Part shown: positions 2-4,802 of the stretch, piece after piece | Layout of the letters: each line of letters opens with the position of its first letter | Position numbering within the stretch: position 1 is the stretch's first letter | Assembly: GCA_016840425.1 (NCBI GenBank) | Contig: JAEOSI010000171.1 | Span: 1-5,010 of the forward strand | DNA from: Candidatus Wukongarchaeum yapensis | GTDB taxonomy: Archaea; Asgardarchaeota; Wukongarchaeia; Wukongarchaeales; Wukongarchaeaceae | Length of the DNA: 5,010 nt | Direction of reading: 5' to 3' | Translations under genes and position numbers: made by a program | The notes under the pieces: generated by a model | The model's input: only the letters and a program-made list of their open reading frames with translations | Told to the model about the DNA's origin: nothing | The model's database searches: none

Positions 2-394
2 CTCCGTCTCGGTTTCTTTAGGTACTTCAGGTATTTCTCTTTTTAGAAAGCTTAAAATAGCGACACGGATTGCTTCACTTTTACTTGGATAAAACCCTTG
101 ATTAACGAGCCTTTCAAGCTCTTTTTTCAATTCTTTTGGCGCTTTTAGGCTGATACGGAAGGCGGAGCTTCTCACGTTTTTATTGTAATGATGGTGGTTA
201 TGAGGATGATGATAATAATAATATTTTCTTATATCTTCTATGGATTCGAATGGCGGTTTACGATCCTTTAAAAGATCTCTTATTGCTATTCTTATTATTT
301 TAGACCGGTCGGGATAGTCCTCATTTCTAACCAATGTGTCAAGCTGTTCTAGAAGCCCGACGGGGATTATGAAACTCATAGTTATCATTACCAT
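2..394 (-). CDS. Tandem (double) ribbon-helix-helix CopG/Arc/MetJ-family DNA-binding protein with Tyr/His-rich linker; 3'-partial, runs off the left edge
   Basis: Manual translation from ATG at 394 gives 131 codons with no stop: MVMITMSFIIPVGLLEQLDTLVRNEDYPDRSKIIRIAIRDLLKDRKPPFESIEDIRKYYYYHHPHNHHHYNKNVRSSAFRISLKAPKELKKELERLVNQGFYPSKSEAIRVAILSFLKREIPEVPKETETE. There are two copies of the archaeal RHH pattern (beta strand - L.xLV..xYPxRS/KSxxIRxAI..LL), at residues ~3-42 and ~79-117. An SD-like GGGGGA lies 6 nt upstream and TTTATAAA boxes lie further upstream. It is absent from the ORF track because its stop is outside the window. The start could be M1, M3 or M6. Confidence 0.88.
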   Translation of the reverse strand, partial: MVMITMSFIIPVGLLEQLDTLVRNEDYPDRSKIIRIAIRDLLKDRKPPFESIEDIRKYYYYHHPHNHHHYNKNVRSSAFRISLKAPKELKKELERLVNQGFYPSKSEAIRVAILSFLKREIPEVPKETETE

Positions 395-708: not shown

Positions 709-3501
709 CTAATTTTTCTCTGTCGAATTTTTTATCAATATTCCTTTCACTTTTTCTCTCAAAAATTCTAACGCTTCGTTTACCTTATCTTTTCGAGTTC
801 CACCGCCTATGATGAGGCCTTTCTTACCGCCCGCTCCTCCACCAACCATTCTCGACGCTTCATTCATAACCTTTCTTAAGCCTTTTTCCAACTCTGGAGG
901 GCTTGTTCCCACGAGGATAATATTACCGTTTTCTATCCCTAATAAAACCAATAAGAAGTTCTTCTTCCCGCCTAGCCTACTGCATATCATAATCATTTCA
1001 TCTTTTCCAATATCCTGTTCTAAGTTTACGTATGTTTTTATACCATCAACCTCTTCCGCTTCAGCTTCTATCTTTTCTAAGTAAATATTTGCTATTTTTT
1101 CTCGGAGTTTTTCAACATCTTTTCCCCTCTGTTTCCACTCATTGAAAAACCTCTCAGAAGTGGCAATTACCTGATCTATTGGAACTCTAAGAGTTTGTGC
1201 TGTTTCTTCTAACAGTTTCTCTCTCTCTTGAATATACTCTATTGCAGGTTCTCCCGCGTAAAACTCAAACCTGACAACCCCGTCCGAAATACGTTCTACC
1301 TTACTTATCTTTATCAACCCAGCCTCTCCTGTCTGTGAAAGATGCACGCCACCGCAAGCCTCTACATCCCAGTCCTCAATATCTACTATGCGCAAAATCT
1401 TTCCAGGCACCGCTCCACCTTGATAGATAACGAAACCATGCTGTTCTTCAGCCTTATTCCGCTCCATCTCGCTTATAGTAACTTTTAAATTTTTCATAAC
1501 TGCTTCATTTGCCAGTCTCTCTATCTTTTCTATCTCTTCTGGAGTAGGACGCTTAAAGTGGGAAACATCCAAACGAGCTTTTTTAGGCGTTTTATCAGCT
1601 CCCACCTGCCAGATGTGCTCGCCTAAAACTAGCTTTGCAGCCCCGTTTAAAATATGGGTTCCTGTATGATGTCTCATAAGAGCTATTCGCCTCTTCCAGT
1701 CAATCTCTCCTTCGACTACATCACCTTCCTTTAAGCCTGAAACATCGCTTAACTGATGGAAGACGATCTTCCCCACTTTAAACACTTCTTCAACCTCCCT
1801 ACCGTTAATTAATCCGGTATCGTAAAGCTGCCCCCCGCCTATCGGGTAAAAAATCGTTTTATCAAGGACTACGTACTTATCGTTTATAATCTTCAAAATT
1901 TTAGCTTTTAATTTCCACCTATATCTCTCCTCATAATACAGGGGTTGAGTAGACGGTAATCCCTTGACTTTAGGGGCCAGATCCTCCACCTCTTTCTCTT
2001 CTTCCTCTATTTTAGTCGCGGCGACCGGTTCTGTTATCGTGGCCCTTGCGTAAAAATCTCCTGGAATCGATACCGCTTCTCCCTTCCCTTCTAATTCGGC
2101 TATCTCTTTAACCATTTCAGGCGTTATTCCCCTAGAACGATACATCTCATATAACATATCTTCTGTTACCTTTTCCTTTTTTTCTAGTAATCGTTTAACA
2201 TACTTTCTGCCCTTTCCCATGGTCCCCCGATAACTGTTTTTTTCAACCTCAAAAAGCTCCGCTATGATACTTGAAGCCTTTTTAAGCCTTGGATAAGTTT
2301 TACTAAAATACTCTATCTGCTTATGCATAAGTTCTAACAAGTCAATGTTCAGGTTAAAAGTCTCATTAAGACTTACAGCCCTTCTAAGTATAGTTCTAAG
2401 GTTATAACCCCCACCAACATTAGAAGGTATAGCGCCATCAGCTACTGCGGAAACAAGAGCCCGCGTATGATCAGCTATAGCATAAATAGCCTCTATAGGA
2501 CCAAGACGCTCTTCAAGCACTTCATAAGTCATTCCAAGATTTACAGCGACATCTTTCCTCACCTCAGAAATATTCCTCACTTCATCGACGTTTAACAAGC
2601 CAGCTAAGACAGAATATCTTGATAAAAGGTCCCCATCTACTTCGACTCCTGCCTCCTCTATCATCCATTCTAAAACAGGACCGAACGTTGCTTCATATAT
2701 CGTGGGAGTACCCTGAGTGAACCACGCAATACGCTCTAATCCCCAACCCACATCTATCACGGTCATATCCATCTCCCTGTAAGACCCATCGGGAAGGATC
2801 TCATACTGGGTAAATACACTGTTAACGATCTCATTTCCCCTGCTAAAGCTTTCTAAACTTGGACCAAAGTTTCCTCCCCCCACCCAAACGCTCGGCATGT
2901 AAATTATCTCTTCCTTCGGTATCTGCATATCTTCCGTTAGGAACTTGAAGTTAAGCTCAATGCAGCGGTCCATCCAGTAACCTGTGATAAGTCTTTTAGA
3001 ATTAAAAGCATGCTGACCTCCCATTATAAAACAGGTAAGATGCCTCCCCGTCTTACCAATATTATCTATATCACTAAACTCCCCCCCAAACCTCAAACAA
3101 GGCTGGGGTACAACTAAAGGATTGCCGGGAGGATCAATAGTGCCGTTAAGAACCCAAGGCTGAAAATCAGCAATAGAAGCTATGGTGAAATCCATATCGT
3201 CCCTCCAACGCGACACAATAGGATACTCTTTAACCCTTAAATGGCCATTCCTCTCAAAAAAGTCGCACCAACGCTCTATAGACTCATGAAAATCCCATCC
3301 TCCCGCAACCTTTTTCCCTAAGAATTTATAACCTCCCTCGCAAACAGTTTCCCCACAAATATCCCTGTCCATATCAAGGGTCCAAAAATTGTGACCACAC
3401 CTCTTACAAGTCTTCCATAAAAAGCCTTCTTCTTCAAAAAGCTTTACTGTATACTGTTCCTTACCAAATATTTGCATCAATTTCCCTTTAGATAGAGACA
3501 T
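709..3501 (-). CDS. alaS: Alanine--tRNA ligase (archaeal-type AlaRS, full length with editing and C-Ala domains), 930 aa
   Basis: N-terminal archaeal Cys cluster (CKRC...CGETVC); FTIASIADFQPWV; QPCLRF...DIDNIGKTGRHLTCF; WVGGGNFGP; motif 3 DVGWGLERIAW; IADHTRAL...DGAIPSNVGGGYNLRTILRRA; editing Zn motifs HTGTH (H612/H616) and CGGVH (C716/H720); Gly-rich C-Ala end GGGAGGKKGLIIGGG. GGTGA SD lies 6 nt upstream of the ATG at 3501, supporting M1 over M9. Confidence 0.98.
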   Translation of the reverse strand: MSLSKGKLMQIFGKEQYTVKLFEEEGFLWKTCKRCGHNFWTLDMDRDICGETVCEGGYKFLGKKVAGGWDFHESIERWCDFFERNGHLRVKEYPIVSRWRDDMDFTIASIADFQPWVLNGTIDPPGNPLVVPQPCLRFGGEFSDIDNIGKTGRHLTCFIMGGQHAFNSKRLITGYWMDRCIELNFKFLTEDMQIPKEEIIYMPSVWVGGGNFGPSLESFSRGNEIVNSVFTQYEILPDGSYREMDMTVIDVGWGLERIAWFTQGTPTIYEATFGPVLEWMIEEAGVEVDGDLLSRYSVLAGLLNVDEVRNISEVRKDVAVNLGMTYEVLEERLGPIEAIYAIADHTRALVSAVADGAIPSNVGGGYNLRTILRRAVSLNETFNLNIDLLELMHKQIEYFSKTYPRLKKASSIIAELFEVEKNSYRGTMGKGRKYVKRLLEKKEKVTEDMLYEMYRSRGITPEMVKEIAELEGKGEAVSIPGDFYARATITEPVAATKIEEEEKEVEDLAPKVKGLPSTQPLYYEERYRWKLKAKILKIINDKYVVLDKTIFYPIGGGQLYDTGLINGREVEEVFKVGKIVFHQLSDVSGLKEGDVVEGEIDWKRRIALMRHHTGTHILNGAAKLVLGEHIWQVGADKTPKKARLDVSHFKRPTPEEIEKIERLANEAVMKNLKVTISEMERNKAEEQHGFVIYQGGAVPGKILRIVDIEDWDVEACGGVHLSQTGEAGLIKISKVERISDGVVRFEFYAGEPAIEYIQEREKLLEETAQTLRVPIDQVIATSERFFNEWKQRGKDVEKLREKIANIYLEKIEAEAEEVDGIKTYVNLEQDIGKDEMIMICSRLGGKKNFLLVLLGIENGNIILVGTSPPELEKGLRKVMNEASRMVGGGAGGKKGLIIGGGTRKDKVNEALEFLREKVKGILIKNSTEKN

Positions 3502-3584: not shown

Positions 3585-3700
3585 TGAACTGCTCCTACCT
3601 ATTGGAGAGAGCTTCCTGATTCAACGACTGAACATGCCGAGATTTCTCTCGGTAGAGGTTCTATCTCCGCAGGCGTAAATTCGGACAGTCCCTGCCCTAC
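3564..3700 (-). ncRNA. Predicted TnpB omega-RNA (right-end RNA): scaffold about 3700-3584 plus flank-derived guide about 3583-3564
   Basis: Hairpins overlapping the tnpB 3' end on the minus strand: GGGCAG-GGA-CTGTCC (3697-3683); CCGAGA-GAAA-TCTCGG with a GNRA loop (3652-3637); CCTG (3673-3670)/CAGG (3618-3615) long-range pairing; terminal hairpin 3611-3592; possible TGAA (3623-3620)/TTCA (3588-3585) pseudoknot. It is established that TnpB omega-RNA overlaps the tnpB 3' end and takes its guide from the right flank. The 5' and 3' limits are approximate. Confidence 0.72.
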
Positions 3701-4802
3701 CAGTTTTAAACCTCTTTTTAAGACTACAAACGAGGAGTTGTAGTCTCTGTCTATTTCTAACCCACAGTAAGGACATCTGTGGGTTCTTATAGATAAGCTT
3801 TTTTTTACTTCTTCGCCGCACTTATAACATTCTTGTGTAGTTCCTCTCGGGCTCACTTCTATAACCATCTTACCAGCTCTCTCAGCCTTGTAAGACAGAA
3901 ATTGCGTGAATCTGTTCCAAGAGGAATCCATTATATTTCTAGCATTATAACTTAATCCCTATTAAACCTTTTATGTTTAATTTCTCAACAGCTATAAAAC
4001 CATAGTTGTTGACATAAAACCTCGACAGTTTGTGTAAGAAATCATCCCTTTGGTTTTTGATCTTTTCATGGATTTTTGTAACCTTTATTTTCTGTTTATT
4101 ATAATTACCAGAACCCTTCTTTTTCTTGGATAGTTTCTGTTGTTTTCTTCTCAAACTTTTCAAAGATTTACTCAGATAAAGAGGATGTTCTACTTTTCTA
4201 CCATCAGTATCGGTAACATAGTAGAGTATACCCATATCAATTCCTACAACTTTTCCTATCTCCTTTTTATTGGAGATACGCTGTTCACAATAAAGAAAAG
4301 CATACCATTTACCAGAACTATACCTCTTTACTGTTACTTGTTTTATCTTCCCTTCCTTTACTTTTCTATGCATCCTGATCTTTATATCCCCGATTTTCGA
4401 TAAGTGTAACAAGTCATGTCTATTACCCGTTTCTATGATTTTGAACCCGTTCTGGTTATACGTAAAAGTTTTGAACCAGCTTTTACCCTTAAACCTAAGC
4501 CTCCCTACTTTTTTACCGTTCTTCTTAAGCCTTGCCAAACCTCTAAGATTTGAGAACAACCTGTATGATTCGTATTGGAGGACTTTAGAATATATTTCTT
4601 TCAGCTCTGGATACTTTTCTTTCAGCTCTGGAATAGAGTTTTGTAACTCTAACCAACTCGGTTTATCTTGTTTGTTCAAACCTTCTAACATTTTGTTGTA
4701 GACAAACCTACACCTATCAAGGACTTCCAACAACTTTTCTTCCTGCTCTTTAGTCGGATACAGCCTGAATTTATAACTTATCACTTGATAACCGATCTTC
4801 AT
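3599..4802 (-). pseudogene. tnpB: TnpB RNA-guided endonuclease, frameshifted by one extra base at about 3952-3955 (ORF-track pieces 3945..4802 and 3599..3931)
   Basis: N-terminal YKFRLYPTKEQ...CRFVYN; RuvC-I VVGIDMG; RDDFLHKLS; RuvC-II IAVEKL; then in the second frame MDSSWNRF..LSYKAERAG, Zn finger CYKC...CPYC and RuvC-III DRDYNS. The span is 1204 nt. Removing one base in ATTAAGT gives a continuous 400-aa frame reading ...KGLIGISYNARNIMDSSW... Confidence 0.92.
4595..4632. repeat. Perfect 17-bp direct repeat inside tnpB
   Basis: TTTCTTTCAGCTCTGGA at 4595-4611 and 4616-4632 (21-bp period), encoding IPELKEK-YPELKEI. Confidence 0.9.

Follow-up and report, generated by a model that had tools for sequence, protein, structure and literature searches.

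The DNA stretch analysed here (the window: 5,010 nt of the Asgard archaeon Candidatus Wukongarchaeum yapensis) carries alaS, the gene for alanyl-tRNA synthetase (AlaRS). In the encoded protein, P0001, Arg455 occupies the position of the acidic residue described as the reader of G3 in the G3:U70 identity pair of tRNA-Ala. We found that Arg455 is genuine and fixed in the genus, that the acidic residue is not a family-defining feature of AlaRS in Asgard and DPANN lineages, and that the tRNA-Ala genes of the same genome all retain G3:U70. The Arg455 enzyme represents a new natural form of a familiar enzyme and is most probably ordinary in function.

The Asp or Glu of the motif Y-(D/E)-(S/T)-(H/Y)-G binds the 2-amino group of G3 and was stated by Zeng et al. 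to be always present (PMC6451123). In Archaeoglobus fulgidus AlaRS, Asp450 binds this 2-amino group through its side-chain carboxylate as well as its backbone carbonyl (Chong et al. 2018, PMC6055181), and the main chain of the Tyr and Asp, together with the amide of the Gly, also binds the ribose of U70 (PMC6055181). The substitutions D400A and D400N caused an approximately 25-fold loss in kcat/Km in the Escherichia coli enzyme, and D416A and D416N barely altered the activity of the human enzyme (PMC6055181). According to the same paper, neither N359A nor D450A disrupted the charging of wild-type tRNA-Ala by the A. fulgidus enzyme. A natural variant has also been described: the beta subunit of Nanoarchaeum equitans AlaRS has Ile at this position (LYISKG), and the alpha plus beta enzyme is strongly G3:U70-specific (Arutaki et al. 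2020, PMC11392972).

The motif segment, LYEMYRSRGITPE, begins at residue 450 of the translated 709-3501 (-). Its codons are M453 (2145-2143), Y454 (2142-2140), R455 (CGT, 2139-2137), S456 (2136-2134), R457 (AGG, 2133-2131) and G458 (2130-2128). The HMMER alignment with the AlaRS of A. fulgidus (3WQY) and Pyrococcus horikoshii (2ZZE) was ungapped over the motif (lyemyRsrg, lielyDshg and lvtfyEshg, respectively). Thus, R455 stands at the position of A. fulgidus Asp450 and of a Glu in P. horikoshii. Since Y454, G458 and P461 were invariant across 121 homologues, the register of the alignment is fixed. A preliminary description of this DNA had placed Arg455 at the Asp450 site, with N361 in PSNVGGGY as the intact Asn partner, and both the placement and the residue numbering were confirmed. 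It had also named E452 as a residue that might instead align with Asp450. We rejected E452 as a shifted acidic substitute, because it aligned to A. fulgidus Glu447 and because an acidic residue is common at that position in homologues that also bear Glu or Asp at 455. The second Arg to which the description drew attention, Arg457, is indeed encoded by AGG, but it is the commonest state of its own column in Asgard sequences.

The sister species G001 (90% identity) had the identical codon CGT at 455, adjoining a synonymous difference in the Ser codon (TCT/TCG). The segment LYEMYRSRG was found in 16/16 distinct members of the 90% cluster, which came from NCBI, ENA, Logan and JGI assemblies. Likewise, zero differences within 2062-2347 were seen in contigs covering 1800-2500 that came from three unrelated studies (of marine sediment, seawater and marsh). 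The earlier judgement that a miscall is unlikely was thus borne out, and the close relatives do share the Arg. Comparison of the P0001 gene with that of G001 gave a synonymous divergence (dS) of 0.62 and a nonsynonymous divergence (dN) of 0.053, with R455 retained; at a dN/dS of 0.085, alaS is under purifying selection. A metatranscriptome contig spanned 1800-2111 only, which is outside the motif. DNA nearly identical to window 1800-2500 was present in runs from 11 studies, comprising marine sediment, seawater, marsh, mangrove and soil metagenomes.

The housekeeping AlaRS of this Asgard archaeon is a single protein, P0001. The window was taken from contig C180 of a 2.16-Mb metagenome-assembled genome (MAG; G000) with 277 contigs and 92% completeness. 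The class IIc catalytic and tRNA-recognition domain is present (tRNA-synt_2c, PF01411, E = 1.4e-104, residues 76-604), as are the editing domain (a match to tRNA_SAD, PF07973) and the C-terminal C-Ala/DHHA1 domain (PF02272, residues 828-919). All of the invariant columns of 61 homologues were kept in P0001, and the editing motifs HxxxH and CxxxH were present, in agreement with the earlier statement that the catalytic and editing motifs are intact. The best solved relatives were the AlaRS of P. horikoshii (2ZZE, E = 9e-204) and that of A. fulgidus (3WQY, E = 2e-192). An AlphaFold2 model made from the 61 homologues had a mean predicted local distance difference test (pLDDT) score of 86 and aligned to full-length 3WQY; in Foldseek it reached a TMq of 0.82 to the tRNA-bound chain 3wqy_A and a TMt of 0.90 to 2zze. 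In this model, the motif lies at the end of helix 447-457, with the Gly loop next, and helix 413-441 belongs to the same recognition subdomain. Proteins 90% identical to P0001 carry the NCBI label Candidatus Hodarchaeota, and the next-best matches, at 53-55% identity, came from other Asgard classes. We also searched for a second alaS or an AlaX. No second full-length alaS was found by tblastn of the 92%-complete genome, and one free-standing AlaX-like editing-domain gene was found (G000:C115:4325-5029 (-), ~235 aa), 33-34% identical to AlaRS residues 518-749.

The tRNA genes were found by a search with Rfam RF00005, and their acceptor stems were read by hand. ARAGORN was set aside, as it gave 4 tRNAs without the intron mode and mislabelled some of them with introns; an A1:U72 tRNA on contig C118 that it called Ala(GGC) was one such mislabelled gene. 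RF00005 revealed 25 tRNA genes in G000, mostly 90-150 nt long, which points to introns. Among them were three tRNA-Ala isoacceptors, with anticodons CGC, UGC and GGC (G000:C110:6980-7123(-), C16:1191-1323(-) and C174:4789-4925(+)), and all had G3:U70 and A73. Their common acceptor stem is GGGCCCG/CGGGUCC, with the pairs G1-C72, G2-C71 and G3-U70. None of the remaining 22 tRNAs detected in G000 had G3:U70. The sister species had the same three tRNA-Ala genes, again with G3:U70 and A73. Two other tRNAs in G000, tRNA-Ile(GAU) (C110:10490-10638) and a CAU tRNA (C120:367-459), share tRNA-Ala's acceptor stem and A73 except for C70. As these near-cognate tRNAs differ only at C70, the cell still depends on the distinction between G:U and G:C at that pair. 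Each tRNA-Ala gene of G000 has two introns, one at the canonical 37/38 position and one in the T-arm that follows the 5' strand of the T-stem. The tRNA-Ala(GGC) of the sister species is without the T-arm intron.

The premise of the preliminary description, that the acidic residue is conserved, did not hold in this region of the tree. Among the 121 best homologues, which are mostly Asgard sequences, column 455 was E54, Q49, T9, R3, I3, D2 and L1. Representatives at 50% identity were searched exhaustively with HMMER, which yielded 148 archaeal sequences covering the motif; in these, the column was D85 E30 T7 Q7 V4 K4 N3 S2 I2 R1 H1 G1 A1. The acidic residue was thus missing from 54% of the former and from 22% of the latter. 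Val, Thr, Gln and Leu were among the states found in 30 genomes of the same phylum, of which the only one from the same order (G002) had Val, and 46 mostly DPANN genome loci had D20, T15, Q6, E2, K1 and N1. The entropy of column 455 was 1.75 bits, rank 491 among 930 columns, which is the median variability in Asgard AlaRS. Comparatively, the Asn361 column had Asn in 142 of the 148 archaeal representatives. The statement of Zeng et al. on the acidic residue therefore fails around this genome.

On a maximum-likelihood tree of 61 sequences, made with the motif columns excluded, column 455 underwent at least 12 state changes. The Arg clade was sister to a clade with LY[I/V]SQG (SH-aLRT 96). On this topology, the acidic residue may have been lost before Arg arose in this line. 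A basic residue at 455 is rare, yet not unique to this genus, since Lys occurs in four other archaeal lineages: P0195 (a Nanohalarchaeota MAG, LYKSRG), P0186, P0215 and P0253. In the Nanohalarchaeota MAG, the only Lys lineage in which tRNAs were checked, tRNA-Ala(UGC), (GGC) and (CGC) all had G3:U70 and A73. In G025, which has Gln at the 455 site, no tRNA 3' end GGTCCA was found by a T-loop pattern, which is narrow and therefore uninformative for this genome. In the literature searched, neither the Asgard pattern nor any variant with Arg, Lys, Gln, Thr or Val was described.

The same Nanohalarchaeota MAG (JAFCCC01) has a tRNA with anticodon CCU (Arg; G041:C11:33508-33581 (-), locus L137) with G3:U70 and the discriminator G73. 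This tRNA-Arg(CCU) is a possible mischarging substrate in a genome with a Lys455-type AlaRS.

Taken together, P0001 is probably an ordinary AlaRS with a predicted activity that depends on G3:U70, in which Y454, G458 and Asn361 would read the pair and residue 455 would have only an accessory, labile side chain. In the minor groove of the wobble pair, the fit would come from the main-chain carbonyls of Tyr454 and residue 455, with the amide of Gly458; Asn361 would read the major-groove side. The side chain at 455 is probably not needed for positive recognition in archaeal/eukaryotic-type enzymes and has drifted repeatedly. Arg is one further state of this position, fixed in a genus whose sister clade has Ile or Val. 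It probably points toward the sugar-phosphate backbone or the solvent and would make at most a non-specific contact. Several observations weigh against this interpretation. Substitutions of A. fulgidus Asp450 lower the discrimination against G3:C70, according to PMC6055181, which cites Naganuma 2014, and the near-cognate G3:C70 tRNAs of G000 require tight discrimination without the carboxylate. In addition, the other natural states are smaller than Arg, which places a hydrogen-bond donor beside the amino donor of G3 and so probably calls for some local rearrangement. That this genus also lost Lys/Arg423, a near-unique change, hints that the replacement was perhaps not neutral.

This loss leads to a different explanation, in which positive charge was relocated. 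In this case, Lys/Arg423 was lost and Arg455 was gained on the next helix, which would keep the grip on the acceptor-stem backbone; the change would be adaptive for affinity and not for G:U readout. We consider this unlikely. In 149 other archaeal representatives, position 423 was K85, R63 and A1, and only this genus had Ser; A. fulgidus and Aquifex have Arg, and P. horikoshii has Lys. Ser423 is a rarer change than Arg455, and both are fixed in 16/16 cluster members. Ser423 sits in the motif E-x-x-[KR]-[YF]-x-x-T of the long Mid2 helix, and both positions belong to the helical tRNA-recognition subdomain (helices 413-441 and 447-457). However, the two residues may be more than 10 Å apart by helix geometry. 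The four Lys455 lineages keep Lys/Arg423, and no loss of Lys/Arg423 was established in the sister I/V clade, so the changes at 423 and 455 are not generally coupled. One lineage also represents a single event, without statistical weight. Moreover, the genus has further substitutions, namely R29W in the N-terminal Cys-rich region, A126G (PPANP), E203P, and Q739S in ERIQDG of the editing domain. These four columns are at least 77% conserved over the archaeal AlaRS representatives, and those of R29W and E203P at least 95%. Together with the long genus branch in the AlaRS tree (0.42), these odd substitutions fit a general burst of divergence that gave way to the purifying selection seen now.

Less likely again is an altered or relaxed identity rule, which the preliminary description had favoured. 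The 3:70 pair would be read differently, either more laxly against G:C or by contacts of Arg with U70 O2 or G3 N3, and accuracy would lean on other elements or on editing. It is true that Arg is unable to accept a hydrogen bond from the 2-amino group of G3 as Asp does, that mutation of Asp450 makes the A. fulgidus enzyme less specific against G3:C70 (PMC6055181), and that the genome has a free-standing AlaX-like gene. However, G3:U70 and A73 occur in all of the tRNA-Ala genes and G3:U70 in no other tRNA found, and lax reading would be costly where C70 alone sets near-cognate tRNAs apart. Many lineages that kept G3:U70 show lability at this site. In vitro, G:U specificity persists in the natural Ile variant (PMC11392972), and the D450A and D416A enzymes are active. 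The loss of the Asp-type hydrogen bond stands, and the changed mode of recognition drawn from it is improbable and need not be invoked.

Of lower probability still is that Arg455, perhaps with Ser423, forms a re-wired minor-groove readout in which the guanidinium contacts G3:U70, for instance at U70 O2, G3 N3 or the ribose of C71. If true, such a guanidinium readout would mean that the alanine identity pair can be read by a second chemistry, of reversed charge. The suggestion of a co-evolved tRNA-Ala without G3:U70 has nothing in its favour and is refuted for the tRNA genes found, because all three isoacceptors have G3:U70 and A73 in the 92%-complete G000 and in the sister species. Also refuted is an error of sequencing or assembly, or a gene copy in decay, which is at odds with the codon shared by the sister species, the 16 cluster members and the contigs of three studies, with the dN/dS value and with the status of the gene as the sole alaS; nothing was found in its favour.

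Features of alaS in the window (positions are those of the window)
Feature	Position	Strand	Basis or remark
alaS, complete archaeal-type alanyl-tRNA synthetase, 930 aa (P0001)	709..3501	(-)	largest open reading frame
MYRSRG, minor-groove G3:U70 loop (Y-x-S-x-G), end of helix 447-457	2128..2145	(-)	R455 at A. fulgidus Asp450 site
Asn361 (AAT) in PSNVGGGY, major-groove partner, equivalent of A. fulgidus Asn359	2419..2421	(-)	alignment
Ser423 (AGT), Lys/Arg site in other archaea, A. fulgidus Arg418 by +5 offset	2233..2235	(-)	
Editing-site HxxxH (H611, H612 ... H616), intact	1654..1671	(-)	H612 and H616 invariant in 61-homologue alignment
Editing-site CxxxH (C716 ... H720), intact	1342..1356	(-)	C716 invariant, H720 nearly so, in 61-homologue alignment

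Directly upstream of alaS is a gene similar to TnpB/IS605 OrfB (window 3599-4802 (-)), which is split into two open reading frames (ORFs) in different frames. One of them (285 aa) has HTH_OrfB and OrfB_IS605 domains, and the other (110 aa) has a Cas12f1-like TNB zinc ribbon. The split gene is probably a frameshifted pseudogene. Downstream of alaS is a ribbon-helix-helix protein of the CopG type (PF01402; window 2-394 (-)), whose ORF passes the window end. Among the genomes of the same phylum, G021 (C10:52888-55460 (-)) has alaS as two adjacent ORFs of 597 aa (query 16-578) and 349 aa (query 578-868), which meet at query residue 578, the boundary of tRNA recognition and editing; a split gene and a frameshift are both possible. 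Seven other genomes of this phylum, from families f6 and f12 (G006, G016, G026, G036, G012, G032 and G022), had no match to an archaeal-type full-length AlaRS. They had only ORFs of ~600 aa that resemble the catalytic, recognition and editing parts weakly and in pieces (27-42%), which may be a different, possibly bacterial-type, short AlaRS.

Asgard and DPANN archaea have replaced the Asp/Glu of the Y-D-S-H-G loop, which primary papers and reviews treat as an ever-present reader of G3, many times: with Gln, Thr, Val, Ile, Leu, Lys and, in this genus, Arg. G3:U70 stays fixed. This pattern fits the published view that AlaRS of the archaeal/eukaryotic type select G:U by shape and exclusion and not by this hydrogen bond. 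The Arg455 enzyme is the extreme, charge-reversed member of a series of natural variants with which G:U reading free of the side chain could be tested, and it sits in a genome whose tRNA-Ile acceptor stem differs from that of tRNA-Ala only at position 70.

P0001 resembles A. fulgidus AlaRS in its four-domain architecture, its fold (37% identity, TMq 0.82), the Asn at 359/361, the Tyr and Gly of the Y-x-S-x-G loop and a substrate with G3:U70 and A73. It differs in having Arg455 for Asp450, Arg457 for His452 and Ser423 for Arg418. Like the N. equitans enzyme, it is a natural archaeal AlaRS without the acidic residue at this position; however, N. equitans has Ile and two split genes, and here there is Arg in a single chain. 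The Lys-type AlaRS of P0195, P0186, P0215 and P0253 share a basic residue at the Asp450 position, but they have Lys instead of Arg, keep Lys/Arg423 and belong to unrelated lineages, DPANN or other. As for human cytoplasmic AlaRS, recognition by the Asgard enzyme may likewise not rest on a positive contact made by this side chain, although the human enzyme keeps its Asp416 and loss of the Asp reduces specificity against G3:C70.

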